From Obrimoposthia wandeli (lineage: Eukaryota): a stretch of DNA of 64,000 nucleotides. Each line of letters begins with the position of its first letter. Position 1 is the first letter of the stretch. The notes under the pieces are model-generated. The model searched no databases. It was not told where the DNA came from and saw nothing but the letters and a program-made list of their open reading frames with translations. This document shows positions 1,770 through 42,259 of the stretch, piece by piece. The position numbers and the translations under genes were made by a program. The DNA is taken from assembly GCA_977020255.1 (NCBI GenBank), contig CDROCS010000088.1:124001-188000 (forward strand). The letters run 5' to 3'.

Positions 1770-2458
1770 CTTATATTTAAAATTTTAAACGAATTAAATT
1801 CAAGAACATGCTATTTTTCTTTAAGATTAAAATATACCATACATCATTATGATATTTCATGTACCTTTGATAGAACAGTATACTGTACTTATCTAAAATA
1901 CGTGATATTAGTAAATTAAAATATCGTTTTTTATTTGTTCATTGTTTTAACGTTTACAAAATCAATTAAACGATGGATGACTTTTTATGATTTTAATAAG
2001 GGCAACTATTGGTTATTTTCATAGATACAGAAGTTTATTGCATATATATTTTTACGAAACATTAACAAAAATATTGCAAGACATCTACAATTTTGAATAA
2101 AAATAAATCGTTTCATAAATGGTAACTATCAAGAAAAGACAAAAACCCTCATATATACATTTAGATTTTCATAGTTCGAAATTTAAAAAAATAAAAACTT
2201 AGAAAATACATTAATAATTAAAAATATATAAATAATGATTATAATCTCAAAATTGTATTGCTTGATATTCACGATTTCATTAGCTATTAGCATGAGTAAT
2301 TTTACGGAACATCAGTTAATTTAGATCCACTTTCAAAGAATGCATTGAAATGTACAAATCTGTAATATTATTTTAATAATTTGTAAATGAAATTCTCGTA
2401 TTTCAATCTGTTTTTGCATTCAAATTTGAAGTTACAATTACTTTTCAATCCACTTTTA
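1770..2458. repeat. Left non-coding arm of a long inverted repeat (partner about 7965-8680)
   Basis: For example 1801-1930 and 2240-2455 are diverged reverse complements of 8510-8640 and 7965-8190. Confidence 0.85.
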
Positions 2459-3299
2459 GTGAAGTAGGGAATGTGGCACTTCAGGCACAAAAATGCTAGT
2501 ACCCGCCTTCGTCCGGGGGTATCAGAATTTTGAGCATAACTTCATCACTGGTTAGCACAACAACCGTATACACATTACGTAATTATTAGTTTCCATAGTA
2601 ACTGAATATATGTATTACACCACTACTGGTTTCCATAACAACCACTTGTGCATATTACATCTTCACTTGTAGAATTGATGATAGCTTCGTGTATTGCATC
2701 ATCGCGTATCACCATGTCAACCGCGAGTGTATTTCGTCATAAGCAGTTGCCATGGTCGGCATACGTCAAGGTTACCTAATTTTGGAAGTTGTTTTAATAT
2801 TTAGAATATGCATAAAATGTAAAATTCAAAAATTCAATATTTTTAAAATATTTAGAAATAATTAAGTTTTTTACATTTTAGATTCAATACTTAATTTGCA
2901 AATTTAGTTTACAATCTTTATGTAAGAATTTCGAATTTTTGTTTACATTTACAATTTTAATGTAAGAATTAATACTTTATTTTAGTTTACATTTACAATT
3001 TTAATACTTAATTTTTAGTTTATATTTAAGTGCCTAATTTCAAATTTAGTCTATTAATTATCAACTTGATTATGTTTTTATTCAATTTTTAAACAGTTAG
3101 GAATACTAATAAGAATAATTAAAATATATTAAACTTTAAATTATAATTAACATCACTATTTATTATAAACTATAAATTTAAAAGAACATAGTAATTAATG
3201 CAATTTTACACAGTTGCAAATAAGAATAAAATCAAGATATTATTTAATGTCAAAATATATTACTTACAATCACAAAGGAGACTATGAAAAGAAAAGTAC

Positions 3300-5420: not shown

Positions 5421-5829
5421 ATTCTTGATGTTTAATTAAATCAACTCCTGCTTCTAGAACATCTTAATCGAAGGGGAGTCCTTTATTTGAAAATTGTCAG
5501 GCACGTGTATCAGCTTCGTTCATCAATTCGACACGCACTCCGAATTGCACCTTACAAGTAATAAACTTTCTAATAAAACCCCGTTATTGGATGAAAATAA
5601 TATCTGAAACCACTAAATCAGGCATATTATCATTAGAAACTTGTAATGATTATGTTTCCATACTGTTTTGTTATCCCACCCTACACCTAACGCGATCAAC
5701 TCGAGAAAGTTTTTCGCAGTAGAGCTATCTGAAGTGAGCAAAACACTTTGCTCGCGGGTAGATGCTGGTAATGGTGCAATAGTGGGATCATATTAACATA
5801 TTCAGTAGAAGCTGAGATAGGACTGGAAC

Positions 5830-6760
5830 TTTTTTTGTTTATACTGTTCTGGGGGTCTAACCCTGAGCGTATTTTAGCATCTAATATTAATTTTTAGCAT
5901 TATTTTTTGGTTTATACTTTATTAGGTTCTGTTCCTTTATTTATTTTGTATTATGATGTTTTTTTCTGTTTTTTTTATAGAAGATCTTTTTTTTCATACC
6001 AACACTCTGTTAAAATTTTCTTGGTAATAGGTTTTCATTTATTTCAGCGTTCTACACAGTGGCATTTTTTTGGGGTATTGGCTTTTTTAATTAAGTTACC
6101 GGTTTTTGGTTTTCACCTGTGGTTACCAAAGGCTCATGTTGAAGCTCCTGTATTTGGTTCTATGATTTTAGCAAGTATACTTTTAAAGTTAGGTGTTTTT
6201 GATCTTATTCGTTTTTCTCAATTTTTTTTAGTTTTAGATATTTAGGTGGAAATATTCTAGTTCAAAAATTTTTTTTTACTTGGTGTTGTACTTAATTTGG
6301 TTTGTAGTCGCCAATATGATTTAAAGTCTTTTGTTGCTTATTCTTCAGTAGTACATATGGGTCTTATTTCTATTTTTTATTTGATTTGGTGGTTACTTGT
6401 CTCTTTTTGGTTCATGTTTAATTAATTTTTCTCATGCTTTTTGTTTTTTTTCTTTATTCTTAGGTGTTAAATGTTTTAATGAAATTTCAGGAACTCGTAA
6501 TATTTGATTAAACCGTGGGTTTTATTGGGTTATACCTTTATTGTTTTTTTTTGGTTTTTGCTTGTGTTGGTAATTGTTCAGCTCCTATTAGGTTGAATCT
6601 TATTTCTGAAATTCTTTGATGGGGATTTCTGTAAATAATATTCCATTTTCTTGAGTTTTTTTGTATTGTTTGGTTTCTTTTGGAAAGAAGGTTTAAAAAT
6701 CTAAAATTTGAGTTAGTAGCTTAGGTATTTATTATTTTAGTTTAAAATTATTGCTCCATT
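5830..6760 (+). pseudogene. nad4: NUMT: degraded mitochondrial NADH dehydrogenase subunit 4 fragment
   Basis: ND4 motifs [46 protein letters not shown] and QYDLKSFVAYSSVVHMG. Extreme T-rich strand bias, stops and frameshifts, embedded among nuclear repeats. Confidence 0.9.
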
Positions 6761-6944
6761 CTGTTGTTTTGTTGTATTTTTCCTTCAGTCATTGAGCTTG
6801 AGCTTACTGGAATATCCGTTGGATTATCAATTGGAATATGTATAATATCTCATTACTTGTGCTTTTACTGTTGAACACAAATAGATTTTATTAATAGAAG
6901 TTTATTTCCAACTACAAATATCCATCCAGTAATACTTGTGTCAA

Positions 6945-7870
6945 TCATTTCCAAGACCATTTCTCCTTTTACTGTTTACGTGGACTTTGAGGCTGTGCTA
7001 CCGCCACATGAGATTCACCAACAGATTCAGCTCCCAATCGCGGCTGGTGTGATCATTTCTCTCGTTGCAGGCACGAAAGGATACACACACGATTACTCGG
7101 TTTTCACCGAAGAATCTTGTGTTAATTCCTTTTTACGAAACCTGGAGGATTTGGCGAAACACGTTGTTCTCCCAAGGTATAAAAATCATGCAATCGAGAT
7201 GATGCACCAAATTACATTGATACAGGTATCGAGTTTCAATGTTGCAACAATATGTTAGATACGTAAGAGGGTAACATAAAAAGTTCAAGACCACGATCAC
7301 ATGACAGGCGAGTAGCTCGGAACAGCACATTTAAAATGCAACTTATCAAGGAGACTGAACCGATCTTTTCCTGTTATTTTTCACAATTTGATGGAACACG
7401 ATATGCACTACACTTAAGCATGCGCTGAGTCAATTTTCGCACTGGAGTATCTCTTTCATTTCTCAATCGACAGAGAAATTTCTAGCTATGCTCATGCATA
7501 TTGAAGGAGTTTGTATTTGGTTTATCGACTCTTTACAGTTTTTGAACAGCGGAATCAAGAAACTAGTCAAGAATCTGGGTGTCACTCTTCTGACACATTC
7601 CGTCTTTCCACAACATCTGGTAAGCAACAATGGCATCTGTTCCTACGATATGGCTGTCAGAGACTGCTATCCGCGCTATTACGAGTTCGCCACCAAAGTT
7701 GAAATGGAAGACCAAGTTGACCGAGTACGAGATGGAAAAGAAGGTGTGGACTCAGAGCGACTGCTCATGGATGAACGTCTACCAGCTTGCTGACGTTTTT
7801 ACAGCATACTGAACCAAGGCCATTGCAGACAACGGACTGGAGCCACTGAATTTCTTCTCCATACCTGGTT
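6945..7870 (+). pseudogene. Second Polinton-type pPolB fragment, inverted relative to the 3300-5420 copy
   Basis: PFTVYVDFEAV, DHDHMTG..GTAHLKCNL..FPVIFHNL, WFIDSLQFLNSGIKKLVKNL and LADVF. Reverse complement of about 4147-4840 plus about 250 bp (7393-7640) absent from the left copy. Confidence 0.85.
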
Positions 7871-7964
7871 TTTTTTTTTTATATATTTCACTAAGTAAAT
7901 TTAATAACTTTTAGTAATGTATTTATAAGTAAATTTTCGTTAATTAATTTTTGTAAAGGTTTTA

Positions 7965-8680
7965 TGCTAAAGTGGAGTGAAAAGTAATTGTAACTTAAAA
8001 TTTGACTACATAAAAAAACAAATTAAAATAAGAGAATTTCATTTAGGAATTATTAATATAATATTACAGAATTGTACATTTGAATAAACTCTTTGAAAGT
8101 TGATCAAAATTAACTGATGTTCCGTAAAATTTCTCATGCTAATAGCTAATGAAATCGTGAATATCAAGTAATACAATTTTGAGATTATAATCCTTATTTG
8201 TATATTTTTAATTATTTAAATTGTATTGTATAAGTTTTTATTTTTTCAAAATTTCAAACTATGAAAATATAAATGTATATGAGGTTTTTTGTCTTTTCTT
8301 GATAGTTACCATATATGAAACGATTTCTTTTTTATTCAAAATTGTAGATGTTCTGCAATTTATTTGTTACTGTTTCGTAAAAATATGTACGTAATAAAGT
8401 TCTGTATCTATGAAAATAACCAATGGTTGCCCTAATTAAAATCAAAAAAAGTCATCCATTGTTTAATTGATTTTGTAAATATTTAAATGTACAAATAATA
8501 AAATATGGCAAAACGATATTTTAATTAACTGATATCACGTATTTTAGATAAGTACCATAAACTGTTCTATCAAAAGTACATGAAATATCATAAATTATGT
8601 ATGGTATATTTTATTCGATAAGAAAATTAGCATGTTCTTTGTATTTAATTCCTTCAAAATATATATTTTAAATATAAGGA
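7965..8680. repeat. Right non-coding arm of the long inverted repeat (partner about 1770-2458)
   Basis: Diverged reverse complement of 1770-2458. Confidence 0.85.
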
Positions 8681-9204
8681 TATACCAGCATTTTTGTGCC
8701 AGAAGAACCTCACTCCTGACTCCATAACCATGGTATCTAATAAATTTTAATCTTAGTAGTTAGATAGATAAATGCTTTTTTATTTTTACATAAATCTGCA
8801 GTTTCATAAGTTCATCGTCTGAAATTGCAGATAAAATACATTATCTTTCGTACATGAGTAAAATATTGAAACTTACCAGTGAAACCGGAAGGAAAGTTCG
8901 ATTACAGAACTCGCATGGAGACAGCAGAGTTAAATCTGGCGCTGCATAACAAAATATATTTTCACATTAACTTAATAATGGGATATAGATATTTTAATAT
9001 ATACAAATGTCGGTTAAAAATAAAAAACTAATATCTATATGAAATAAAAGTCATCAACATAACTTCGAAATTTATATTTAGTTATAGTACTTTTAATAAA
9101 AGTACACATTTGTACTAATATTTTAGTAAGTGTTTCGTAGGCACTTTAATATTAAAGCAATGATAGACTAGTAATATAATATGCCATCTTTTCCAGACGG
9201 GATT

Positions 9205-17399: not shown

Positions 17400-20190
17400 A
17401 AAGGATGACCTAATAACTGCCGTTTTAAACCTTTGCCAGAAGCAGCGTCTGATCTTCTCTTATTAATGCACATCTTGCGTCTTCTAATTCCTCTATCGAT
17501 AATTTTTCCAACTGTCTTTCTAATTTTGGAACTCGACAGTTTTTTACGAATATATTTTTCCAAGTTCGTACTCTAATCAGTCTTCTCCAATCTGAAAAGG
17601 TGTCTGTACTGAATGCGTCTGTTTGTCTCACATAGGTTCTATCTTTCGTGGTTTTGTTAAAAAAACAAGGCACCTTCTTTCGTTCAGTTTTTGATTCTTT
17701 CGTATTTATTTTTTTATTTCTCCTGCTTTAAAAATTCTGGTCCTTCCCACCACATTCTCGACTTTACCAATTCTTCTACATTTATTCCTCGGGATAGTAA
17801 ATCCACTGAATTTTCTTTGGTAGGAACATACTGCCATTAATTGTTTGTCTATGAATATTGGATACTCTATTTGCTACAAATGTTTTATCCAGCTCAACGT
17901 GGTCATGATATCACTTCAGAATGTTATTTGTTTCATTTCAATTTTTAACGCTTCCGCCACTTTTCTTCCCATGGTTAATCCTACACAAGCTGCTATTAAC
18001 TCCAACCTTGATAGACATATTGTAGATATGGGGACTACCTTTGCTTTCGCTATTACTAATGTATTGCGCACTTCCTCTCTCCGTTCACAAGCATAAATTA
18101 CTGCTCCATAAGCTTTTATTGAAGCATCTACAAAATGTGGTAATCTGTCACTGATTTCTCAAATATTTTTAAACATCGATTCATTCGTATTCTGTCTAAG
18201 TATAAACAATCGTCGCTCCATTTGTTTATGGTAGTTGTTGATTTTTCATCCAATTCATCGTCTCAATCTGCTGCACTTAACCATATATCTTGCATAATCA
18301 TCTTTTCCTTTATAGTAAATGCACTCACCATTCCTATTGGGTCATATAATCGTTCTATGAGACTGAGAAATGTGATATTAAATTTTAAAAAATTCCTCAT
18401 GCATCTCATTTCACTCCTAATGTCTTCGTTGTTACTTCATCTTCTTCTTCTATCTTCCATTCGGTAGCTCGCTCATCTTCAGGTACAGTCTTCATCAATT
18501 CTTCGCTATTGGTTAACCACTTTCGTGTTTTCATTCCTGCTGCAGCCCACACTTCTTTTAACTCATACTTCAATTTTAAACCTTGTTCGAGTGTGGTGAC
18601 CGAATCAATACTACCATCCATATAGGTAGAATATAATATTGTTTCAACAGCTCTCGGGTACTTCTCTTGGTAGCTTCTAGCATTCTCTTGTGTGATCAAC
18701 TGTGCCAGAAAAGAGATGTATTTAAACCAAATACCAATCGGTTGAACTCTAGTTGCCGCACCTTACCATCTATCCACCATAAAAATCTAAGATACGGTTG
18801 ATCTTCTTTTGCAACCTGTTTCTGTAGGTACATATCCTGAATGTCGCATGTCAATGCTACTGGGTGCCGTCGGAATCTTGCTATATTGTTATCAAGTCAC
18901 CCTGGAGTTTTGGACTACATTCTAAAGCATCATTCAAACTCATTCCGTACACTTTTACTGCTGCGTCAAATACAATTCTCACTTTTGAGGTAATTTTATC
19001 ATTATGTACCATTGGGAAGTGCGGTAACAACCACTTTGTTTCCACTTCATTCTTTTCTTCTACTACTCTAATATACCCCTTCTGTAAGTGGCCTTTTATT
19101 ACTCGGGTATATGCTTCTTCTAGCTGATTATCCCGTTTAAAACGTTGTGTCAAATTATCCAATATTATTTTCGCCATTTCCTGACTCTTCTGTAATTTAT
19201 CTTTTTCTATCTTCCAAGGTAATTTTACCCGATACATCTCGCCATCGTACCTCATATTTTCTTTTGTCATCTGTAATAATTTATTGTCTTCAGTAGATAT
19301 CTTGGTTTTCTCCAGTTCTTCCTCTACCTTCCAAAAACGTTGAAGTGTCTGATCTAGTTGCTCATTACCTTTAAAATACGTCCTTATGAAATTAACCTGC
19401 TGCCGCTGGTCTACATCAACCTTCCTTACACATGTCCACCCGAGTGGAGTTAATCGTGCCACTGGCTCTCCCTCTCGCCCAGCAATCTCTCTCAATACCC
19501 GATGTGTCCACATACAATCGGCTCCTATAAGTACGTTCACCTTCCGCATTCTTCTATCTTTCTGAGGAAATTTTATCTTCCTGAGATGTGTCCCCTTTTG
19601 TACCTCATCTACCCACTCATAAACTTTCAAGTCACCGGTCAAGTTATTTACTGTGAGTGCATCTAGTTGCATTCTCTCCAAACTATCTACCCCTTTCACT
19701 GTTAATGTCACCGAGGTGGTGGCTATTTCGTGTACTCTACCTCCGATAACACTGACTGGTACTGTCTGTCTTGTACCTTCTGCCTTCAATGCCTTCGCCA
19801 CCCAACTGTTGACGTAGCTGGTGGTGATACCATCATCTAATAGCGCATTTACCTGCACTGTTCTTTCCCCATTTCTGAGGACGACTGGCGCGATCCTCAA
19901 TGTAATTACTTTGCTCTTTCCACCTAACTTAATGTGGTTTGTGAATTTCACCGGTGACATTGTGCTCCTCTTCCATTCCCGATGCACCAATAAGTGGTGC
20001 TTTGTTGGATATCCAGCCACATTACAGAACTTCCTTAACTTGCATTCATTTGCCTGATAGCCTTCATTGAGACAATTAAAACAGAGCACATTCTTTCTTA
20101 CGAACTCCCACATCTCGTCCAAATGCAAGCTCTTGAACTTCTCACATTGACTCAAATAATGATTTTCTCCGCATTTTCGCAACTCTTCTT
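17400..20190 (-). mobile_element. pol: Degenerate Bel/Pao retrotransposon: gag zinc knuckles, protease, RT, RNase H; integrase deleted
   Basis: CGENHYLSQC...LCFNCLNEGY..C...HHLLVH; ALLDDG; LPHFPMV...KVRIVFDAA...SLNDAL; RFRRHPVALTCDIQDMYLQ; TYMDG; YDPIG; FVDASIKAYGAV...SRLELIAA; FSDWRRLIRV...LSIEELEDA. It then jumps to FWQRF and the PPT with no DDE core. Confidence 0.92.
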
Positions 20191-20629
20191 CCACGTTGTT
20201 CGCTGATCTTGGTGTCAATGTGAATTCTATAATCACTTTCTTAGTCGTAAACACATTGGAGTTTTGATGCAGTTCTGCAACTAATGTATTTCCATCGAAG
20301 TATGACACTCTATGACACTCTAAGTTCGCACAGAAATTCGTTTGTTAGTGCATCTTTCACAATGACTTCTTTCGCCACATCTGTTGGGTGTTTTCTTTCG
20401 AAAACGACTATGATCTCTTCGTCTTCTTCTAATATGTCTTGTGGTGCGATGTGTCGGATTACTTCTTTTTCATCTTGGTGCTTCATTCTGAGCATACCAA
20501 TTCTCACTGGATCTTTCCAACATTGTTGACAATATACAAGATTCCTTCTTTTATCGAGTATTTTTTCGTCATTTCATCGTTTAGATCTCCTTTCAATAAC
20601 ATTTCTTTGATTAGACTCAGTTCTTCATC

Positions 20630-21335
20630 TTATTTCTGTTCCTTGATGATCTCTTTGTCTATTTTACCCGTCTTCAGCAAAATCGTTAGTAGATTTGCTT
20701 CTCCTTTTTGGTCGTTGACTTCATCTTGACCTTCTTCTGGAATTATGTTTCCTTTCTCGTCTACATTTATCAATCTCGACAAACAATCTGCATTGCCATT
20801 CGACTTTCCGGTTCTATAACGGATTTCTAGATCAAATTCGGCTAATTTCAGAAACCATCTGTTTAATCTACTCATCTCGACTCTATGTTTATACAAGAAC
20901 TGTAGTGGTTTGTGATCTGTATACAGGAATACTTTTTGTCTTAGCAAGTAGTGTCTGTACTGTCTACATGAATATACTATGGCTAGACATTCCTTTTCAA
21001 TAACAAAGTATCCTCTTTCAGCTCTGTTTAACCCTCTACTCGCATACGCGATGACGTGTTCTCTTCCTTCTTCATCATCTTGTCCCAATACTGATCCTAC
21101 AGCATAGTTACTTGCATCTGTCATTAGTATGAATTGTCGGTTTATATCTGGAAACGCTAATATTGGTGCTTTTATCAGTCTTTCCTTTAAATGCTCGAAC
21201 GCTTGTTGTGCTTCTTTTCCCCATATGAACTTCTCATTTTTCCTCGTCAACTTTCTCAATGGTGTTGCTATATCTAAAAAATGTTCAACAAATCGTCTAT
21301 AATAGTTTGCAAGACCTAAAAAACTCTGTATTTCC
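20630..21335 (-). pseudogene. pol: Gypsy RT connection and RNase H
   Basis: IQSFLGLANYYRRFV, LIKAPILAFPD, LMTDASNYAVGSVLGQ, VIAYASRGL, EKECLAIV, YTDHKPL, RWFLKLAEFDLEIRYRTGKSNGNADCLSR. A small deletion or frameshift near 21340 separates it from the RT ORF. Confidence 0.95.
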
Positions 21336-22050
21336 TTAATGTGCTTTTACTTTCTCGATCTTTGCTGGATCAGGTCGGATGCCTTCTTTCGATACTATAT
21401 GTCCTAAAAATGTTACTCGCTCTTTAGCCCATTCGCATTTTGTAGGTTTAACTTTTAATTTAGGGTTTTCCAGTCTTTTAAATACAACTTCAAGATTTTT
21501 TAAATGTTCTTCGAACGTTTTAGAAAATATTATTATGTCATCGATATAAACCGTCGTGTTTGCACATGATGCGAGTACAAACTTCATGCAACGCTGAAAT
21601 GTTGCTGGCGCTCCTGTCAGTCCGAATCGCATTTTTTCGCATTCGTATAGTCCATCTCCGCAGGAAAAGGCTGTTTTGTGTTTATCCTCTTCCTCTATCT
21701 CGATTTGCCAGTATCCACTCTGCAAATCTAATGTTGTAAAATAATCTGAATTACCCAATTTATCGAGCATCTCTTCGATTCTAGGTAATGGATACACATC
21801 TTTTCTTGTGATCTTGTTCAGTTCTCTGAAATCTATACAGAATCTCATTTTCCCATCCTTCTTTTTTACCAACACCACAGGTGCTGAGAATGGCGAAAAA
21901 CTCGGTCTAATTACTCCTGTTTTAGACATATCTTCGATCTGACTTTTTACTTCATCTTGTAACTGTAATGGTACTCGATATGGTCTTCTTCTGACTACTT
22001 TGTCTTCTGTCAGTGGTATTGTATGTTTTATGACAGGTGTTTCTCCTATG
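21336..22050 (-). pseudogene. pol: Gypsy reverse transcriptase core
   Basis: VIRPSFSPFSAPVVLVKKKDGKMRFCIDFRELN, YPLPRIEEML, LDLQSGYWQI, FGLTGAPATFQR, VYIDDIII, FLGHIVS. Confidence 0.97.
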
Positions 22051-22509: not shown

Positions 22510-22820
22510 AAATCAATACTTATCCCTTTGAGTTGTGATAGTACATCCATTCCTAAATTTGTAGGTTCAGGACATTCTTTCATGATTCTAACTGATATAG
22601 TGATCGTATTACGTCCAATTATAAATGTACATGTTAATATTCCTGTCACTTTTACATGGTCTCCATTAACCGATACCAAGAATTCATCTGGTTCTGCCAT
22701 TGTTTGTTTCGTTTCCTCTATCAAACAATCTTCACTTACTATCGAAACTACAGTACCTGTATCAATTAAGGCTTTTACTCTTAAATTATTTACTCTAATG
22801 ATAGCTGCTGGTCGCTGTGT
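22510..22820 (-). pseudogene. Aspartic protease 2 (canonical pre-RT position)
   Basis: VKALIDTGTVVSIV...LGMDVL retropepsin motifs. Confidence 0.9.
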
Positions 22821-22899
22821 TCCATTTATATTTCCCATATGGTATATCGTATTTATCGAATTATTACATTTTGTCGGTCCATTGTTTGGATAGTGAAAT

Positions 22900-23045
22900 C
22901 TAATATTTCTCACTTGTCGATCTATTATCTTTCTACAAATTGGACATGTTACCTTTCCCTTCGCACATCTCTGGCATGTTCTCACATGTCCACATGGTAA
23001 AAAGGCAACTTCTACTTTGTTGACCATACAAACTGCGCATTCCGG
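22900..23045 (-). pseudogene. IAP-type C3HC4 RING finger
   Basis: Hand translation CAVCMVNKVEVAFLPCGHVRTCQRCAKGKVTCPICRKII. The F.PCGH..TC..CA....CP.CR pattern is typical of IAP RINGs. Confidence 0.9.
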
Positions 23046-23109
23046 ATCTTCTAGTATGCATTCTAGTTCATTTATGTACTTTTTCTATTTTGTTTCAATT
23101 GTACTGTCA

Positions 23110-23500
23110 TCTTTATCTCGTAGTAAATCGAAAATTGATCCGTATCCATTTCATGTAGTTTATATTTTTAATTCCACCAAATCTCTGATTCTTTCTACTT
23201 CTTTTGGATATAGTCTTCTCACGAATGACACTACCGGTGTGTCTTGTTGAGCCAAAATCTCTTTCTGTGTGATTTGGTATTCGACTATACATTCAGTTTT
23301 CTGTTCTTTTTGCTTTATTTTGTTTTTAAAAATACAAAACTAGCAAAATTCATGATGCAAAGTTTTCTTAGGTAACTCAAGAGTATATCTGTCGATAATT
23401 CGTTCTTTTTTACACTTGTGGCATTTAATTACGTCTTTACCATCCTTTTTTTATAGCAAAAAGTCCCTTTTTTGCTAATTTTTTAAGTCTTGGATATTCG
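23110..23500 (-). pseudogene. Degenerate second BIR repeat plus IAP-like UBA segment
   Basis: Hand translation across a frameshift and stops: LAKKGLFAIKK/DGKDVIKCHKC...TLHHEFC*FC (BIR-like), then PVVSFVRRLYPKEVERIRDLVELKI...GYGSIFDLLRD, which resembles the XIAP/cIAP UBA region. Confidence 0.55.
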
Positions 23501-23689
23501 AAAGTTACTTCTCAATATTGTTCGTCACATTCGTTTACTTCTCGCATTACTTCGAATATGTCTTCAATTCGACTATTTGTTATCACCCTGCCTATTATTT
23601 GAGCTTTTTCTCCTTCTGGAATCTCATCACTGTTGTCGAAGTCGGGTGCTTTCCCAGTTTGAATTTCTGGTTCATTTGCAGTTCTCAAT

Positions 23690-23900
23690 TTCAGGAGGAA
23701 TGGACATGTTGGTGTTTCTCTTTTATGACGTTTCATTGGGTTATCATTGTTTATCCAATTTCTAAACTTTACTCTACAATATACGCATCGTACTACTTTC
23801 TCAGAACCAGAATCTTTTGTCGTGTCTCCGTTTAACATTTGTAAACCCGTTCTCGCCATTTTGCGTGACATTTCTTTTGAATAGTACGGTTCTAGTGACC
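23690..23900 (-). pseudogene. BIR (baculovirus IAP repeat) domain
   Basis: MARTGLQ...VVRCVYCRVKFRNWINNDNPMKRHKRETPTCPF has the C-x2-C...W...D.P...H...C zinc-binding pattern. Confidence 0.88.
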
Positions 23901-24149
23901 TTCGTCTATTTCTCTCGATTCTAAAAGGATCTGTTTCTGATATACTCTTATATGTTATTTTCCTCCTCCCCATGGCTTGTGGTCCGTTGTCTACTCCTTT
24001 GTAGTGAAGTATCAACTTTACTAACACTTCCTGTTTCCTGTTACGGTACGGATTTCCCATGCGGAACCTAGTGTATTTTTCCTTTTCAACTGTAGGTCCT
24101 CTCAACATCTTTATCTCTCTCACTGAACTGTTGTTATTTAAACTCTTGT

Positions 24150-24470
24150 TGTTTGGTAATATTATTATTCCTTCAAACATTCGTATTACGTCCATCCCAA
24201 TCATGACTGGACTACCACAATCTGTGAATATTCTAGCATTTAACTGCAATGCTCTTCCATCGATAGTTAACTTACATTTCAGTGTTCCTTCTGATACTAC
24301 ATCTGTACCATTTATATTAACAAATGTTTGTTTTCTAGGACATACTTCTCCTAATTCTTTTGATGACAAGATTTCTTTACTCAGTACTGATACTGCAGAT
24401 CCAGTATCAACTTCGGCAAGATATTCTCTTCCGTTCAGTGTTACTGCTACTTGTGGTGGAGCATTCGGAT
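24150..24470 (-). pseudogene. Aspartic protease 1 (extra protease, in frame after the env TM)
   Basis: VTLNGREYLAEVDTGSAVSVL...VMIGMDVI retropepsin motifs within ORF 23512-25869. Confidence 0.9.
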
Positions 24471-24819
24471 TCTCATTGAATATCCTAGACTTCAGAATTC
24501 TTCTGGAATTATCTTTTTTGTCTCTTTCCTCTGCTTGTGGAATCTCACTGTAGTTCACTCTAGGCCATCTTATCATTAAAATGCCTCCCTTGAACTTTTT
24601 CTTCTCTTCCTTTAGTTCCTTCATTGGATATAGGTTTAGCGCCACTTCTTCCTTGTCTGGTAACGGAATCTTTGGTTTTCCTGTATTTGGTATCTTCGCA
24701 TATTCTCTTGGACTATCGTTATCATCGTCGTTGTCGTCTCGGTAGGTTCTTGGTTCTCGTATCATGGTTCTCGTTTGATGTTGCTCCTTCTTGAGGGCTC
24801 GCAACTCGTTCTCATGATG

Positions 24820-26623
24820 ATGGTGCATTAGATATTTCGCTAAAAATGGGAAACATCCAATTATAAGCTGCCAGGTGATTCCGGTTATCCTGTATAAACT
24901 ATACGTAGATAACACCTGGGCTATAATTACCTGCACAAATTTAATTATAACATAAATACCTATGATACCTGAAAATAATTGTCCTAAAACAAGGAATTTC
25001 CCCCACATCTTTCTAAGGGTCTGATGTGCTGCTTCCTTGAAATGACTTGGCGACAATAACATATCAAAATTCGCATATCTAGCTCCTGGCGGTAATGCAC
25101 GATGTACCATCTCCGTAAGTACTCTGGCCCTTCTTACTGGAAACATTATTTCGTTCCAGACCGCTTTTAAGTCTTTCTCATTGTACAAACCTGCATTTTC
25201 CATATTCTTTACAGCTTCGAATTTCATTTTTCCTTTAAGAGTCGTCATTTTTATCATCGTTGTAGTTGTTGTTTGCTTCCGGTCAGGTCGAGTTATCCAT
25301 AGATTATTCGTCATCTGATATTCAGGTGCCATTATATTAGAGCAGCTGATTTCTTTAGTTGGAGTGTCTTTTGGAAGTATCATTCTCGTGATTGGTTCAA
25401 CAAAAAGCGCTTTTAAATTATACGTTACTGCCAATTCACTCGTACATCGGTCTGTTTTTCTCAACTGTACTTCTACTTTTTTACACTTGTAAGTATACAG
25501 CACCTCTCCCATGGTTTTAGCAAATACTCCTTCATCTAAGGGTATTAATGGTGCTACCATGTCTGGATTCGTAATAGCTAATGCTAACTTTGTTCTTACG
25601 ATCTCTTTGTTTAACTGGCAATCTTTCTCAATCATCATCCGATATAACTGTTCCATTTGCATCAATCCTTTATGATAATAAAAATCAATTTTATTATTAA
25701 AATACGTGTGTAGCTGCATATCTCTAGGTTTTAACTTGGTTCCTGCCAATGCTATTGATTCTCCTGACAAAACTATTCCCGGATAGTTTGTAGTACTAAC
25801 AGTCATTCCGCATCGCGCTTTATTTCTCTTTTTAATAAATATCAATCCTTCTTCTGTTGATGTTGCCATTAACAGTGTAGGTGTCGGCGTCGTAGGAATT
25901 GGTCCTGTTGTGTTATGAAATCATTCTCCACCTTTATTATACAGGAACCCTTTTATTTTATTAAATTTAATCTCTTTCAAAAATACTAAAGAGCATTGTT
26001 TTGGATCGGCGTGATGTATGGCAAGATGTATCTGTCAATCTACATTCCGGATACTTCATCATTCGTTTTGTATTTTTATCAAAATGGGCGGTCCATGTTT
26101 TTAATTCGATCTGGTAAGTTACGTCCATTACCAACTCTGTTACTTTAGTACCACGCATGTTTTTTGTTCCTCCGTCACAAGATCCATCAGCCCATCGTCG
26201 TCCTACTCTCGTGACTGTTTCGTATCGTCTCACCCCAATTTTTACATCAGGTTTGTAATTCTTATCTATTTCTATTTTTCCTGTTCGAAATACGTCTTTG
26301 CAATCTCTCGGAAAGACCTTGTGTGGTTTGTACGGTGTGGTAGTTGTGATTTCCGACATAAAACTTCTATGACCACAGTAAAATTCGTGATAACTTGAAT
26401 GAACTGAACATTCCTTCACTTGTACCTGTATTTTATCAACATCCTGATACACAAAATAGTTTTCAACACCTTTAATTTCTAATTTTGAGGGTTGTGATTC
26501 TGGACAGTCTTCGCTGTCAAGCAGTGAATACTTTTGTCCCATCTGTGTTACACTACAGTCGTATGCTACTAACGCTGATGCCTGTTGCATTCCCATAAAC
26601 ATCACTAACATCATCATCATCAT
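24820..26623 (-). pseudogene. env: env-like chuvirus (Jingchuvirales)-type class III fusion glycoprotein with signal peptide and C-terminal TM
   Basis: MMMMMLVMFMGMQQASA signal peptide, then LVAYDC...YSLL...C...C.V..YCG..S...C...TG...GSCDGG. After a frameshift (about 26010) and a stop (about 25920): CG...YFNNKIDF...QMEQLY...KDCQL...LALAITNPD...GVFAKTMGEVLYTYKCKKVEV.LR.TDRC.SEL.V...FVEPITR...C, then hydrophobic WGKFLVLGQLFSGIIGIYVII. The cysteine and motif order matches chuvirus G and retroelement gB-like envs as I know them. Confidence 0.85.
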
Positions 26624-27750
26624 CGTTGTGGACCTATTTGGTTGATTGATCTTTCTTTCGGACGGTATTGTTTATTTTCTCTTTGACGATTCTCATGACA
26701 TTGTTCATCATCGTCTTCATTCATTTCCACAATGGTTTTAGCGTGGTCACTTAATTTTGCCCAGCCTCCGTTTTCGTCAATTCGTCGCTGCAATACGTTC
26801 TCGATCAGATACATCGCTTCATTTATTCCTTGTTTGACTTCGTGAAGTTTACTCGTTCTTTCCGTCAATTGGAAACATAGATTTTTATTTGTAGTCTGGT
26901 TTCCACATAATCTCGCTAAAACTTCGCCATCGTAAAATCTATCTATTGATACATGGTATCCTTGATTCGCAGTCATTCTCTTCACTGCAGACATTTGTGC
27001 TCTAACTGCTCTAGTCAAATTGTCTGTTATATCGGTTGTTTCATATTTGTACATTTTGAACAACTTCGGCTTTACTTGTCTGAGAATTCCCGTAAGTATA
27101 TCTTTACTACTTGGAGCTTCCGAATTCATATCACCCCTGATATCTTCATTTCGCTCTGCACTATACTGCTCTAATGACGCTGCTAACTGCCCAATGCTTT
27201 GATGTCTCTCCTCATCAGTTTGAGGTGCAGTTAGAACATTTTGTAATAAACTTCCGTTCTTTCTAGATCTTCCAGGTCCTCTTCGAAAATACTGATACTC
27301 AGTTTGATTCTCACCTAGATCATACGGTTTATCATTATACCGTACCTCTTGACTTGGTACTGCTACATGACCAATCTCCTCGTTTTGTCGCATCGTCTGC
27401 TCTGCTTGTCTATCTCTGTATGCGGCATGCCAAATTGGTGAATCTAAATCTACAATCTCGAAGATTTCGTCTTTTCCAACTAGTTCGGTTACGTTTTCGT
27501 TTTGTCTTACTTGGTTAGCTATATCCGTGACTTCATTTTGTCCGGTTTGAATTATCTCTTGCTCTAATGGTACTTCAACTACCAGATTCGTCAATTCATT
27601 TTTTGGTTCCACGTCCTGTAGTTCAGCTACGTTTGGTTCAGGTGTGGACGTCTTGTTTCAAGCTTCAGCTACATCATTATTTCCGCTTTCGCTTGAACTG
27701 TCTAAACTTTCTATAGGCGTTGTTATCATATCTAACGCAAATTCAATATC
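26620..27750 (-). pseudogene. Unassigned polyprotein segment between the Ub-like domain and env
   Basis: 330-aa ORF plus upstream in-register codons. Acidic N-terminal part and helical C-terminal part. No motif recognised. Confidence 0.6.
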
Positions 27751-27786
27751 TCGGTCAATCCTTCATTATCTACTAACTCCTGACGT

Positions 27787-28017
27787 CCTACAGTGATGAC
27801 ATCAATCTTTTCCTCTAATTCGTTTCCTATCGGATATCCGCACTTGACTGGCACATCTTCATCATCTAGTGATCTTCCTTTATAATGGAACAACATATTC
27901 ATTCCATCTATTTCAAGTTTCTCGGTCAACGTTTTTCGAATAGTTTTCATTGTTTGGTATACGTTGAGTTTTTCATGCATAATCTGTCCGGAAATTAATC
28001 GAAGTGAAATTTTCATC
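27787..28017 (-). pseudogene. SUMO/ubiquitin-like domain in the polyprotein
   Basis: MKISLRLISGQIMHEKLNVYQTMKTIRKTLTEKLEIDGMNMLFHYKGRSLDDEDVP...IDVITVG aligns by eye with ubiquitin and SUMO (F.Y.G..L.D.D.P......IDV). No C-terminal GG. Confidence 0.7.
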
Positions 28018-28363: not shown

Positions 28364-30515
28364 TCATCTCTTCTCTCGAGTGTAGATTTTTTCTTTCGAC
28401 AACGTAGATGAATTCGCCATCTTTGTATGCGGTGAATCTTTAATTATTCCCAACATTCGTTCAAATTTACTATCACTATCTTCAAAATCTATTTCGCGTC
28501 GAAGTTCGGTCTCGCGATTCCTATCGCTGTCATCATTTACGTAACTAATATTTATTTTCGGTTTCGGCGAACTCTCACGACTATTTGTCTTGTCAACATT
28601 ATTATTATTATATCTACCGGAATTATTATATCTCTCAGCTCCTTGCTGTCCTACGTAATTATTGTATCTCTCAGCTCCTTGCTGTCTGTCTGCATAATTA
28701 TTATATCTGCATGGTGACTGTTGTCTATCCGTATATTGATTATTCGGTCTCCATTGCGGCGGAGTATACCCACCACCTCTATTCCATGGCGGGAGTGAAT
28801 TATATCCTCTATAATTATTTCCAAAATTATTATTTCCGAAATTATTATTTCCAAATCTGTTAGTTCCGAATTCTTTACTTCTCGTACAATCTCTCGAGTA
28901 GTGACCCATTTGTTTACACGTATAACACATTATTCTCCCTCGAATATCTATCTTATTTTGTTCATCTTCGAACTGGACTCGACAACTATTCTGTCTATTG
29001 TCATAGCGTCCTCTAAAATCCTTCGGAAATTCGATTCAAAACTGCTTTCTCGATTATTGAATCTTCCGTCACTACTTCCTGCATTATTTCCAAATCGAGA
29101 GTCATTTCGCTCTCCTCTGTTTGCGTTATAATTCCTATCGTCTCCTTTCCATGGTTGGCGATTTCCTGAATTATCTCTACTAAATCTATTTCTGGAATAA
29201 TCTCTATTTCGGTTCCACGAATCATTACTACTTCTACCTCTTGAATCGTTTCGATTCCTGTTCCAAGGCTCGCTATTATTTCTACCCCTCGAATCATCTC
29301 TATTTCTACTTCCGAAATTATCTCTATTTCCGTTACTGGATTCATCTCCTTTTTCAAACTTATTTTGTCCATAATTTCGATTCTGAAAATTACTCGGTTC
29401 TGTCTTATTCACAAATACCTTTGTCTTATCGTCATCACCTGCGATCATTGCGTAAATTGCCAATGCTGCGTTATTTTTTATATTTTTCTCAATTTCTCTC
29501 GCTTTTCGCACGGCGTTATCAAAATCATTTGTATCCGATACTGCCAATAACACTTTAATATCTTTTTTCAGTCCTCCTCTGAATATATCTAACAAGACTT
29601 CTGCCATTTCATTTTGGTTCCGTTCATCTTTCGATGTTTGTGCTTCTGGAGCTACAGGTTCACCTTCCAAATTTCTCACTATTCTTCTTGGGTGCGCTCG
29701 TGCGGCCAAGGTTCTCAAAACATACGCGTATTCATTCACGCTTTCGTCATGTTTCTGTTTCCGTTCTCTCATGATTCCTTATTCACTTTTGCTAAGTCTC
29801 CCAATACCAATTTTCCAATAAAAGCACTTTCCAACGTTTCCCAATTTAAACGTTCTGCTTATGTCAAATGTTTATACACTTCAAGTGCTAATCCGGTCAA
29901 ATGTGCCTGTACACGGACACATTTTTCTCTATCGTTCCATCCTTGAACATCTGCGCAACTCGAATATTCTGCGAGGAAGTCACAAATACTTTCCTCGTCT
30001 CCTTTAAACTTTGTAATCTGCAATGATCCCGAAAAGCTGGGTCTCAATGTCGCATTCAAGGCTTGTGCCAACTGTTCTGCATTCATTCCTCCTACATTAT
30101 TTCCTGGGTTATTACCTGCTTGAGCCATATTTTCAGCTATATTCTCAGCTATTTCTTCAATATTATCCAATTGAACTTCCTCAACCGCTACTGGATTGGC
30201 AATTTCAATTTCTTTTGGGTTTTGAACTTCAATAATTTCAATTTCTTCTTGGTTTATTTCACCAAACAATTCAGTCAGATCAAAACTGTCGGTTGAAACT
30301 GCTGATTGATTAACGTCTCTTTCTGATACGTTTTCTTCGGTTCTAGCTTCTTCTATTACTTTTTTATCTATTTGAGAAACCTGTTCAATTCGGCTAAAAT
30401 TATTATTATTTATCTCTTCCTGTGGAATCTGACTTTGTCTTCTAGTATTAAACGCGGGTCCCTTTTTATTATTCGTTGTTTTATCAATTATGTATTTGTT
30501 GACGATATCAATTTA
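28364..30515 (-). pseudogene. gag: Gypsy Gag: capsid domain, low-complexity regions, CCHC zinc knuckle
   Basis: KFKGDEESICDFLAEY...WNDREKC...LTGLALEVY; ERKQKHDESVNEYAYVLRTLA; DIFRGGL...FDNAVRKAREIE; CYTCKQMGHYSRDC at about 28886-28927. Frame is open from about 30515 but no ATG seen. Several stops and frameshifts. Confidence 0.9.
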
Positions 30516-30617
30516 CTTATTACTTTTATTTTATTTTATAATTCTTATTTTACGATTTCTTATATCAATTTATTTAATTCGAGGACTTTGTCACTCGACT
30601 TAACTTATTCAATTAAA

Positions 30618-30855
30618 TTACTTCGAGGAACAAATCTACTCGATTCACAATTTTATCCAAATTACTTAATTCGAGGAACAAATCTACTCGATTTTACAAA
30701 CTTTATCAAATTACTTAATTCGAGGAACAAATCTACTCGATTCTCAAACTTTATCAATTACTTAATTCGAGGAACAAATCTAATCGATTCTCAAACTTTA
30801 TCAAATTACTTAATTCGAGGAACAAATCTACTCGATTCTCAAACTTATTCAATTC
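30618..30855. repeat. About 47-49 bp tandem repeat x5 in the 5' leader
   Basis: ttacttaattcgaggaacaaatctactcgattctcaaactttatcaa repeated with small indels between PBS and gag. Confidence 0.92.
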
Positions 30856-30947
30856 TCTTATCTCAATTTGCTGATATCTTTTTCTTCTGTAACTTATTCT
30901 CAATTTGCTTTCTTATTCTTCGTGAAGTCGCTGTGTCCGATGAGCTA

Positions 30948-30965
30948 TCCTCACTCGGGGCACCA
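30948..30965 (-). promoter_or_regulatory. Primer binding site, elongator tRNA-Met
   Basis: Minus strand TGGTGCCCCGAGTGAGGA is complementary to the 3' end of metazoan elongator tRNA-Met (...UCCUCACNCGGGGCACCA, from memory). It lies 8 nt after the LTR ...CCCCAACA end. Confidence 0.85.
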
Positions 30966-31563
30966 ATTTGATATGTTGGGGTTTCTACATGAAACTGTTT
31001 TTCTATATAGATCCTCTGAATGGAGGGCCCCAACGTGAGTTCTATAGAAGCAGGACTTGTAGATGTTTGTGGCCTACTTAATGTTATGCTTGCCTGTCTC
31101 AATTCTTATCTGAAGGTTTGTTGTTTCTTAATTTGAAGGGTCTATAACAACGCTTTCTAGTTGTAGGAAATCGTTTATTACTATGCACACTAAATTAACA
31201 CGTCTAAGTACGTTCTAAAAATTACAATACAATTTCTAAGACTTCCGTAAGTCTCTACACAAGTGAGGATGATCCACGTATCGATTTTACTTTTAGGGTT
31301 GGTTGGTCGCTAGAGTCTTTACTCTAAAGGTGGCAACGTTAAAGTGATAGGTTTTCGGAGAGCTATTTACTCTAAAATAGGGATTGAGTTTCGTAGAACT
31401 GTTGCTCTAAAATAATGAACTGAATTTAGAGAGCTTATTCTCTAAAAGGGGGATGGAGTTTAGTAGAGCTGTTGCTCTAAAAATATAGGCAAATATGGGT
31501 TAAGTTGAGCGAGCTGTTGCTCAAAATATGGATTGAATTTATTCACTCAAAAACTTTTGTCAC

Positions 31564-31795
31564 AATTCAATTCAATTTTATAAGTTTAATCGATTCAAAA
31601 CTTTACGTGTTTATCAGGTCGATTTACTTTCTAATTCAAAATTCAAAACTTCAATACTTTTGTTAAAATTCAATTAAATTTTATAAGTTTAATCAATTCA
31701 AAGCTTTACGTGTTTATCAGGTCGATTTACTTTCTAATTCAAAATTCAAAACTTCAATACTTTTGTTAAGATTCAATTCAATTTTATAAGTTTAA
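31564..31795. repeat. 103-bp tandem repeat x2.2 within the LTR
   Basis: Units at 31564 and 31667, partial at 31770. Confidence 0.9.
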
Positions 31796-31919
31796 GTTGT
31801 CAATTTTTTATTGACTCTCACCGTTCTCTGAGATTTTAGGGATGTCCTCTCGTCGGTAGTGATCCTCCGTGGTTTCTTCGCGCGGTATCCTTAGTCCACG
31901 ATCAATTCCTTTAGACAGC

Positions 31920-32118
31920 CTCTGGTTCCGTTTTGGTTGCGGTTAGTTTTCTGGCGAATTGAACTATTAAAATTGCTCTTGAATACAATTTCTCACCTCT
32001 CTTCTCGGTCGGCGAGTTTCTTCCTGAATTCGCTCTGGCTCTGTTTTAGTTGTGGTTAGTTTTCTGGCGAATTGAACTATTAAAATTGCTCTTAAATACA
32101 ATTTCTCACCTCTCCTCT
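31920..32118. repeat. 113-bp tandem duplication within the LTR
   Basis: ggttagttttctggcgaattgaactattaaaattgctctt...caatttctcacctctc at 31941 and 32054. Confidence 0.88.
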
Positions 32119-33353
32119 TTCCAGGACACTAATGGGATTTTGTTGACTCTGTCTGTTGACTTTGAGCGTCTGCTAACGGACTGTCTCCTAAAATGTAAAT
32201 GATTGCACTTAAAATTAAGTGCTCTTACTTAATGGCGGGATTCCGGCTGTCGTGTTTTCAGTGCTTCTCTGGAGATAGACCTGCTTACTGGCGTCGCTAA
32301 TGGATTTTCTTCTTCTTTCTTGTCTTTTTCTGATTAATTGGTATTCTCTTCTTCCTAATTGTCTCTTGCTGGCCTTATCAATATCGAATTTTCTTGGCTA
32401 AATTCTTTTTTCGGATACCTCTTTTTGGGGCCCTTTACTTTAATTTTAACCTCTATATATATCGCACACTAAACATGACCTTTCAAGGTCCTAATATTTT
32501 TCTACAAAAACTATATTTAATTTCAATTTTAATTTATATTTAAAATTAATTTAGTCTATATTTAACCTTGCTTCAAGGATTTTTATTTTAGTATAAAATC
32601 AATTAATTATTCAAAATTATTCAAAACCTAATCCTAACACAATCATTTAAAGTATCTGATACAATTTCTAACCAATTTCCCGCCAAAATCTATTTTATTT
32701 CTAATTTAGTATGTAAGTTTAATATCATGGGTCAATGAGACAAATATCCATCACCAAACCAAAGTTATGGAACATATGTAGGTTGGTAGAAAGTCTCCAT
32801 ATTTGAACACTCGATTAAATGTGAAAATATTAATAGGCATTTTACTATTGATGAGTTCAGGGCCATTCATAAAATTGTCAGAACTATTTTGAAAGAACAG
32901 TGTGTGAGGCTTTGAGTATAAAAGAAAACAGTCCTTCATTAAACATAAAAAGGATTGCTTAAAATTGCTAGAAATATTTTAGCAGGATGCATATTTTTTG
33001 GATGTTGCGCAATGCCACCGCCAGAATATTTAATGACATATTTTCCTTTTACACCAATGCTGATGAAATACTCGAGAAATACTCAATATAAAGAGTGAAT
33101 CTATTTATTTATAGGTTTGAATTAAAATAAACAAATCCTTAACTTGTTAACTTGATTATTTCATTTGAAAAATGTTTTGTGAAGTTTCAATATTAGCGTC
33201 ATAGAAACGTTGTTCGTTGTTGTGCCTGTCGCAAAGAGAGAAGCTGTAGTTGTATGAGCTGGATCTAGACCAATCCGAAGCCGGGAGAATATCATTGGCG
33301 GTTCAAGAGAGCAGAAGAAGAGCGGGTCGGGTGGGTAGCAGATCAGACCTGCC

Positions 33354-40934: not shown

Positions 40935-42259
40935 TGCCTCGACATCGATGATATTGTTAAGATTAAGAAAGTGAAAAATAAATTAAATAATGATAATTAT
41001 ATACTAAAATTCTAACCTTAAAATCAAATGTCGAAATAAAAATTATATATCTAAAAAATTAGAAATTGTTAAAATTAGGGAATAAAAATGAAATATTTTA
41101 GGAACTTGGAGAGGTCTTGTGGATAGTGCAAGTATTTAGGGGAATAATTTTGATTAACTAGTACCAGAAAAAGATAATATCAAAATTTTGAAGAAATAAA
41201 TTAATAACGAGTGAAAAAACAACAGCAGCTATTACTCAGTGAAAATTTCAGACGCAGAATTAATCGACGCGTGAGAAACTCCAGTCGTCGACACTTAGAG
41301 TAACAGAGGTAAGTGCACTTGCTAAGTGATTTGTAAATCTAATTTTCATTCGCAGAAGAGAGAAGTAAGAAGCCGGAAATTTTGATTTAAAACGAAGCAG
41401 CCACTTAAGAGGCAGAAATTAATACACATACGGATTTGCTCAGAGAGTTGAAATAAAGAGAAGTAAGATTAAAAGTGAGAGGCAGAATTAATCGGATTCC
41501 AAACAGAATGAATTGAATAAACAGAAAAACTCGAGACAGATCGGATCGGATCTCATCGGAATAGGACGGAACGGATCAATCGGATTTTCGTGAGAAGTAA
41601 ATTATCTTAAATTGTGAAGTGAATTATCTTAAATTGTGAAGTGAATTATCTTAATTTGTGAAGTGAATTATCTTAAATTGTTATATTGAAGTTTATCAAG
41701 TTATATTGCAATTGGATTTATCTTAATCATTGTATTGATGTTTAAATTCCATAAAGTTTATTTAAGATAAATTTGAATTATATTAGTGAATACTAGTAAA
41801 CCGGAGATCGAACCACATAATCTTTAAGTTACTAGGAAGATTGTTGAAGCGTAAACTAGTAGAGGGTCATATCTTTGTTACGGTGTGTTTGAAATAATTG
41901 TTGTTAGATAAGCTACGTGTCAAATTGTTAAAACCTTTTTAGTTGTGTAATAATAAGTTCTTTTCTACAGTTAACTAGATTAATTTCAGGCACCCACATA
42001 TAGCTGTAGAGCACTATCAACCACGTTACACATCACACTACATTAGTGGGAACCACACCAGTTATTTTTGTGAACACAACTCTTTACACACCTCACAACA
42101 AAATAGTAAATAAAACCTTCAGATTTGAGACTAAGTTAAGTAAGACAAATCCAAAATAGACCACGTCCATCTGTAACCCCTCTTACTACAGAACTCACGT
42201 TGGGAGCCTCCATACGAGGATCTATCTGAATCAAAGCATTTCAAATAGAAACCCCAACA
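40935..42259 (+). mobile_element. Probable solo LTR related to the Gypsy LTR
   Basis: 41090-41145 is homologous to the LTR U3 motif and TATA region. 42110-42259 is homologous to U5 and ends accccaaca. No PBS follows and no clear TSD. Confidence 0.7.
41594..41681. repeat. 22-bp tandem repeat x4
   Basis: gaagtgaattatcttaaattgt units. Confidence 0.92.

Follow-up and report, generated by a model that had tools for sequence, protein, structure and literature searches.

Does the retroelement that crosses this locus carry a nearly complete IAP gene as selected cargo, and if so, what might the product do and where did the gene come from? We analyzed a window of 64,000 nt from Obrimoposthia wandeli (contig CDROCS010000088.1), in which a first-pass annotation had proposed an IAP cassette of BIR, degenerate BIR, UBA-like segment, and RING inside a retroelement polyprotein. 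Between 22600 and 24800, the minus-strand reading frames encode a BIR and a RING, between which lie a Cys/His cluster, split near 23450, and then a helical segment. Pfam matches on the window ORFs follow the order zf-CCHC, Monjiviricetes fusion glycoprotein, aspartic protease, BIR, RING, aspartic protease, reverse transcriptase (RT), and RNase H (RH). The IAP module occupies 22896-24012 on the minus strand, slightly beyond the range first annotated, with BIR1 starting at ~23925 and its lead-in at ~24012. The features of the window copy are, in the direction of the polyprotein:

30970..32640, minus strand: diverged 5′ LTR remnant, outer edge approximate (~73-90% to other copies)
30949..30965, minus strand: motif resembling a primer-binding site, immediately internal to the 5′ LTR (found again at the LTR edge of 6/6 copies)
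28883..30512, minus strand: gag region in several frames, ending in one CCHC zinc knuckle (PF00098 E 1.7e-6; ORFs)
27785..28016, minus strand: candidate ubiquitin/SUMO-like domain, a lead with approximate bounds (Atlas feature score 0.81-0.85 in another copy)
24727..26671, minus strand: env, split in two and lying between gag and pol; a fusion glycoprotein of Monjiviricetes type (PF24664 E 5.5e-72, 2.6e-24)
24181..24450, minus strand: aspartic protease 1 (PR1), between env and the IAP module (PF13650/PF13975)
23926..24012, minus strand: lead-in upstream of BIR1, common to Maverick IAPs and unplaced relatives (alignments)
23692..23925, minus strand: BIR1, Cx2Cx16Hx6C (Pfam PF00653 E 6.3e-11)
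23331..23526, minus strand: BIR2, Cx2Cx18Hx3C, broken in this copy (ligands, fold)
23109..23291, minus strand: three-helix segment assigned as IAP-type UBA (custom profile and structure match; stops at 23160-23162 and 23151-23153)
22896..23039, minus strand: IAP-type RING and tail, preceded by a stop at 23085-23087 (Pfam PF13920, zf-C3HC4_3, E 1.3e-11)
22524..22817, minus strand: aspartic protease 2 (PR2), directly after the RING (PF13975/PF00077 near the cut-off; E 1.5e-7 in another copy)
21393..21869, minus strand: reverse transcriptase (PF00078 E 3.5e-37)
20834..21223, minus strand: RNase H (PF17917 E 1.1e-36)
20209..20518, minus strand: last piece of the element, after an integrase-removing deletion (BLASTN vs ten 20-kb copies)

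The element and its IAP module

The element that carries the module is a ~23-kb Burro-type Gypsy, present in thousands of copies and encoding a single polyprotein of ~5,500 aa (~5,480 codons). A 15-mer from BIR2 occurs exactly 5,932 times across the 1.35-Gb genome, against no occurrence of its reversed control. In Gypsy copies the order gag-env-PR1-BIR1-BIR2-UBA-RING-PR2-RT-RH-IN-phosphatase lies in one frame. One natural copy has an unbroken frame of 3,809 aa across the IAP module, and open frames of 4,985 and 5,487 aa were found elsewhere. The window copy is ~88-92% identical by BLASTN to ten 20-kb copies. LTR pairs spanning ~23 kb were found in five of six copies cut at 40 kb, the best being 99.85% identical over 2,048 nt; judged by these pairs, the family transposed recently. 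Full-length copies have the LTRs, primer site, gag, and PR-RT-RH-IN order of Ty3/Gypsy elements and, as in the published description of Burro, an env in frame between gag and pol within one ~5,000-aa ORF that includes a BIR. Domains, one-frame ORF, and LTRs agree with the env-bearing, BIR-containing Burro-type element to which the first-pass annotation had pointed, and this element type suggests a planarian host.

As described in PMC6431247, the planarian giants Burro1/GYPSM1 and Burro-2 to -4 likewise have a ~5,000-aa ORF, an env between gag and pol, a BIR, and thousands of copies. Section 7 of that source calls the in-frame env of Burro a first for Gypsy elements, and the BIR is cited there to 2007 (Jurka) and 2018 (Grohme). 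A ubiquitin-like domain is reported for Burro in the same account; in the present Gypsy it is a candidate lead, and the segment in the window gave no Pfam match. Unlike Burro, which exceeds 30 kb in that published description, this Gypsy is ~23 kb with ~2-kb LTRs and one zinc knuckle. It also differs in giving no MATH, ankyrin, or BCL2-like Pfam match; BCL2-like and dUTPase-like domains were without a Pfam match in the window ORFs and in full-length copies. Neither the IAP-flanking proteases nor a phosphatase after integrase is mentioned in the Burro section of PMC6431247. BURRO1 transcripts rise upon SMEDWI-2 loss, according to the relevant passage of PMC8532177. A sequencing-run search here returned four matching runs from one study, with no RNA run among the matches listed.

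Further parts of the polyprotein lie downstream of the module. A ~210-aa segment between PR2 and RT is conserved (w 0.03). Full-length copies encode, 3′ of integrase and in the same frame, a dual-specificity phosphatase (Pfam DSPc, 134-140 bits in two stretches; region L034:3215-9313 (+), L032:4657-7506 (+)) that is missing from the window copy, as well as ~1,000 more residues with several hydrophobic segments. In five of six copies (G000 C11, C13, C14, C31, and C63), an open frame of 229-234 aa lies ~0.1-0.2 kb past the long ORF; it may simply reflect a gene on the other strand.

The clear BIR of the first-pass annotation held up in the Pfam search (E 6.3e-11), and its predicted model matches BIR chains with Z 8.4-10.8. 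The four zinc ligands of BIR1 are nearly invariant across copies, and its best single-BIR match in the PDB is DIAP1 BIR1. In a BIR tree, BIR1 groups weakly with middle-type BIRs (SH-aLRT 82), and BIR2 was not placeable, with a branch of 3.68; the row labelled P0028_B2 in that tree is actually the first BIR of P0028.

The BIR2 pieces of the window had no Pfam match, and natural in-frame copies (P0001-P0003) gave a Pfam BIR match under the cut-off (15.1 bits, E 0.035). The four zinc ligands of Cx2Cx18Hx3C are invariant in 7/7 aligned relatives of 26-96% identity. A predicted model of BIR2-UBA has a pLDDT of ~90 over BIR2, and its top 13 rows are BIR-containing chains (Z 5.9-7.1); no viral structure matched the model at E≤0.001. 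We read BIR2 as remodelled and not dead, with the zinc site and the predicted BIR fold both kept. A second BIR had been annotated correctly as to presence and order; "degenerate" describes it poorly, as the domain is diverged yet conserved (invariant ligands, w 0.18).

The proposed XIAP/cIAP-like UBA draws its support from a custom profile. Pfam gave no UBA match up to E 10 in natural in-frame copies, whereas the profile matched 18/145 cellular IAP-like proteins upstream of the RING (iE<0.01) and 0/145 reversed controls. The match is to the XIAP-type UBA of molluscs and other animals, and alignment of the segment to the UBA of cIAP1 scored poorly (3.2 bits). The XIAP UBA structure 2KNA was the top non-BIR row for the segment (Z 4.9, one model) and matched the BIR2-UBA model with Z 5.1 and rmsd 2.2 over 54 residues; because a designed helical repeat scores as high (5.3), the fold match alone is weak. 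The Met-Gly-aromatic loop of most cellular UBA matches is replaced in the Gypsy UBA. The RING proved to be IAP-type, as annotated (zf-C3HC4_3 E 1.3e-11), with the RINGs of cIAP1/2 and XIAP closest in the PDB; its predicted model has a pLDDT <50. All four parts stand on the minus strand in the native order BIR-BIR-UBA-RING that had been claimed, and the stretch between BIR1 and RING does give a BIR (under the Pfam cut-off) and a UBA (by the custom profile), whose absence would have counted against that claim. This order, with a RING nearest to cIAP/XIAP in the PDB, is that of cellular XIAP/cIAP/DIAP-type and baculovirus IAPs. Unlike the cellular proteins, the Gypsy IAP is embedded in a polyprotein, has a Cx2Cx18Hx3C BIR2 and an altered UBA loop, and falls in a clade apart from 34 cellular IAPs.

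Maverick relatives and the origin of the IAP gene

A genome search with a cellular IAP led to a different multicopy locus, Maverick/Polinton family A, an element of 14.5 kb with terminal inverted repeats (TIRs), pPolB (E 6e-22), an A32 ATPase, and an integrase. Its IAP is an intact 299-aa BIR-UBA-RING ORF that has lost BIR2. Maverick family B, which came from a second search, is 16.7 kb, with TIRs in 3/4 stretches, pPolB by Pfam, and ATPase and integrase by likeness to family A. The family B IAP, an intact 333-aa ORF, has a shortened BIR2 of the same Cx2Cx18Hx3C spacing and aligns end to end with the Gypsy module (33% over 300 aa). For the double jelly-roll capsid, Capsid_N matched family A under the cut-off (E 0.001), and Pfam gave no capsid match in family B. 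As natural stand-alone versions, the intact 299- and 333-aa IAPs make the biochemistry testable without the polyprotein.

Next to the IAP of family B (L299:1287-2081 (+), L257:2277-2717 (+)) lie two further ORFs, of which one resembles a phosphatase (DSPc E 7e-11) and the other a TATA-binding protein (TBP E 5e-12). The family B and Gypsy phosphatases align at 31-32% over 132 aa, a lead toward a possible shared origin.

When 1.84 billion representatives were searched in full with HMMER, five relatives proved collinear, at 30-34% (P0006, P0007, P0011, P0028, and P0058). Among proteins of near or greater length, word-index searching with P0001 found no relatives, and viral contigs and JGI metagenomes held no loci that would give the unplaced relatives a genomic setting. 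A protein search with the Maverick IAP gave seven matches. Inspection of five showed them to be ordinary IAP or RING proteins, and the four that were compared with the UBA profile did not match it and were excluded from the tree.

In a tree of 219 columns, the Gypsy IAP, the Maverick IAPs, and three unplaced proteins form one group with 100/100 support against 34 cellular IAPs; domains were cut with profiles built from the Gypsy family, and the tree has two long branches. The cellular set comprises those of 145 matches with a UBA score, with no known planarian host IAP among them, and P0011 and P0058 were omitted for missing domains. The Mavericks group together (99/99); the branching order within the odd clade is not supported, Gypsy and Maverick forming a fork in which neither is nested in the other. 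A mixture-model tree, run in quick mode, gave the odd clade an SH-aLRT of 100. Over the UBA+RING columns, one Gypsy protein is at 41-45% to the Maverick IAPs and at most 32% to cellular ones. Over the BIR1 columns, the same protein is at 28-32% to the Maverick IAPs versus 30% to the best cellular BIR, no closer. The trees show a Gypsy family and two Maverick families of one genome sharing, by sequence, one IAP clade. Adintoviruses/Mavericks are reported in PMC8502044 to carry IAP homologues as accessory genes, with no retroelement link drawn in the portion consulted, unlike the clade described here, which two Maverick families share with one Gypsy family.

The first-pass annotation had supposed that a host IAP mRNA was captured almost whole. 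A host donor is unproven, and the closest placed relatives are stand-alone Maverick genes. The IAP gene may have moved between mobile elements, and the clade common to Gypsy and Maverick IAPs leaves the host-capture story open. The gene would then have been handed around the mobile elements of this lineage, in either direction. Dugesia genomes are reported, in the source as excerpted, to be rich in Gypsy and Maverick elements.

We give even odds to a double capture, in which the Gypsy and the Mavericks each independently acquired the same divergent planarian host IAP gene, the capture supposed in the first-pass annotation then occurring twice. The Gypsy and Maverick IAPs are separate branches of the fork, and 0/200 bootstrap trees from the UBA+RING columns united them in one group. 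Some of the five stand-alone relatives may be host genes, the cellular tree set includes no known planarian gene, and the Gypsy version has the fuller BIR2; each of these points is in keeping with two captures. Against them, each of the three versions whose genomic setting is known lacks introns and is mobile. The hunt for a host gene met element copies alone among the 88/20,173, 150/8,848, and 150/13,484 candidates scored, a weak argument as element copies swamped these searches. In a 312-species survey (PMC13159474), RING-bearing IAPs are near-absent in the flatworms sampled, which also speaks against a host donor; the word "planarian" occurs 0 times in its main text.

A wider reading, which we offer tentatively and lean against, joins movement between elements to function: a mobile-element IAP lineage, and no captured host gene, would have passed between Mavericks and the retroelement, and its thousands of copies, released by the second protease and with a fast-changing BIR1 in conflict with host targets, would be the main anti-caspase E3 of the animal. 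That reading presumes flatworms in which host-encoded RING-type IAPs may be missing. That two Maverick families carry IAPs of this unusual clade makes the origin testable and raises the question of gene flow between DNA virus-like elements and retroelements. Where the study species also has Maverick copies, RNAi experiments on the published Burro1 IAP (B-IAP) may have to take these into account.

Release and function

Two aspartic proteases flank the IAP in one Gypsy polyprotein, and the catalytic Asp is kept in 94/94 copies for PR1 and 89/93 for PR2. A position between two conserved proteases suggests that the module is cut free as an E3-type IAP. We favor, at roughly three chances in four, the reading that the window holds a decayed Burro-type Gypsy whose selected BIR-BIR-UBA-RING module is probably released by proteolysis; the resulting free ubiquitin ligase would prevent the death of cells that express the element. 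Because all share one frame, the IAP would be produced one-to-one with Gag, Env, and Pol, and the flanking proteases would release an IAP of about 420 aa. The RING is internal to the Gypsy polyprotein and terminal only if cut out; in the Maverick versions it is terminal. IAP RINGs act as dimers via a free C-terminus. Release would be required because these dimers need that free end and because the Maverick IAPs are separate proteins that stop a few residues past the RING tail.

At the position preceding the zinc His, the Gypsy family has Arg and 109/122 last BIRs of cellular IAPs have Glu; three residues past this His, the family has Asp/Glu and 105/122 cellular last BIRs have Trp. We take these flanking positions to be the peptide-binding groove of type II BIRs. 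With both Gypsy BIRs lacking the Glu before and the Trp after the zinc His, classical peptide-groove binding by them appears doubtful. For the same reason, the released IAP would act mainly by ubiquitination, chiefly of caspases or death-signalling proteins, and BIR1 would serve as a changing target-binding surface. K, R, L, and V are named in PMC13159474 as interfering residues, in a passage that does not give positions.

Lee et al. (Dev Cell 2026, doi 10.1016/j.devcel.2026.03.001, as cited in PMC13465017) report that Burro1 B-IAP shields stem cells against caspase-mediated death. Like it, the present module is a BIR and RING cargo of a planarian Gypsy; unlike B-IAP as cited there, where BIR and RING alone are named, it has a second BIR and a UBA, both selected. 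The annotation had called the cargo anti-apoptotic or immune-modulating, and the first of these fits the Burro1 account in PMC13465017. An IAP with a function in planarian Burro1 is thus already published, on this second-hand account, and the finding is less new than it was first rated. What the sequences here appear to add is the four-domain anatomy, the two flanking proteases, a fast BIR1, and a clade shared with Maverick genes. No paper listed in the literature search concerned an IAP link between Gypsy and Maverick elements, or a phosphatase in a Gypsy; either might be in Lee 2026 or its supplements. As published, the Burro IAP is a transposon gene that helps regeneration, and it is presented as acquired cargo.

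The module might instead serve the element cycle or damp innate signalling (as an E3 in particle assembly, polyprotein turnover, or an NF-kB-type pathway) and not mainly block caspases. We judge this unlikely, given the reported protection from caspase-mediated death by the Burro1 module (PMC13465017, as excerpted), the weak grouping of BIR1 with middle-type BIRs (SH-aLRT 82), and DIAP1 BIR1 as its best single-BIR PDB match. It gains some credit from a BIR1 without the Glu/Trp pair of peptide-binding BIRs, from a BIR2 that is heavily remodelled and missing in Maverick family A, and from the phosphatase and candidate ubiquitin-like domain in the same polyprotein.

Selection across copies and decay of the window copy

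The selection sample comprised 98/100 aligned copies, L013 and L017 being set aside as probable same-contig duplicates. Of the 98, a likeness search supplied 28, and the remaining 70 were taken by position from pattern lists. Among variants present in at least five copies, BIR2-RING has 22 nonsynonymous and 47 synonymous (w 0.12), versus 243 and 64 among private variants (w 0.95; Fisher p 1e-13). By region, w of shared variants is 0.18 in BIR2, where the exact anchors that picked 70/98 copies reduce the number of variants, and 0.11 in the UBA and 0.09 in the RING, both unaffected by the anchors; PR1, PR2, and RT have 0.09, 0.10, and 0.02. Shared variants in BIR1 number 39 nonsynonymous and 21 synonymous (w 0.44), a departure from the BIR2-RING counts (p 2e-4), with close synonymous rates in the two. 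The 70-copy subset has the same pattern (BIR2-RING w 0.10, BIR1 0.54). Several BIR1 sites have three to five states and change charge, with the zinc ligands fixed. The dN/dS comparison contradicts the neutral evolution across copies that the first-pass annotation had named as one refutation of its claim: the counts show the signature of purifying selection on BIR2, UBA, and RING and on both proteases. BIR1 appears to be under relaxed or diversifying selection, with w below 1. A fast BIR1 beside a fixed BIR2-UBA-RING points to the place where a host target might bind.

That the module is a neutral passenger, kept merely as an open spacer in the polyprotein, is very improbable. Shared and private variants do not differ significantly in BIR1 and the lead-in (p 0.38 and 0.73), and the ubiquitin-binding loop of the UBA is altered, as a passenger would allow. 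The UBA and RING are nevertheless constrained like the proteases, the four BIR1 zinc ligands are nearly invariant, and those of BIR2 are invariant in relatives at about 30% identity; the shared-variant counts largely refute the idea, as far as sequence variation can.

An open frame with all 16 zinc ligands is found in 19 of the 70 pattern-list copies, and misassembled base runs may account for many of the breaks. The window copy has five stops between 23514 and 23085, those in BIR2 being at 23512-23514 and 23340-23342, and cannot itself make the IAP module. Genome-wide, 2,819/3,957 anchored copies are in frame at the BIR2 break site and 143 share the length class of the window copy. The other 995 belong to other length classes and, among the first 100 listed, are mostly at least one base shorter in base runs, so some breaks may be assembly errors. 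The break near 23450 is decay of the window copy (or a homopolymer assembly error) and not a trait of the family. A programmed frameshift in BIR2, setting the ratio of upstream to downstream products, was suggested by an out-of-frame length common to 25/30 best DNA matches, window included, and is rejected by the genome-wide anchored counts (2,819 in frame, 143 in the window's class), that top-30 list having scored 40/4,467 candidates with a bias toward query-like copies.

The window copy also lacks the integrase, found in other copies, and the 3′ LTR. Its integrase deletion measures ~1.2 kb against 9/10 copies and 0.8 kb against one, and Gypsy similarity stops at 20209. A decayed, probably BEL/Pao-like pol region with a weak DUF1758 match (~17400-20200, minus strand) starts where this similarity stops.

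Repeats of several kinds occur elsewhere in the window. A 48-nt tandem array in the 5′ untranslated region (30549-30926) varies in length among copies, and the LTR remnant has tandem units of 35, 103, and 113 nt (31370-32118). An LTR-end-like piece of 60-77 nt, recurring three more times in the window, lies at 1604-1680, 31020-31087, 42126-42213, and 45037-45118, which suggests old solo LTRs or related elements. Nested long inverted repeats at 1775-8724, with arms of up to 452 nt at 97%, probably represent a ~7-kb DNA transposon or foldback element.
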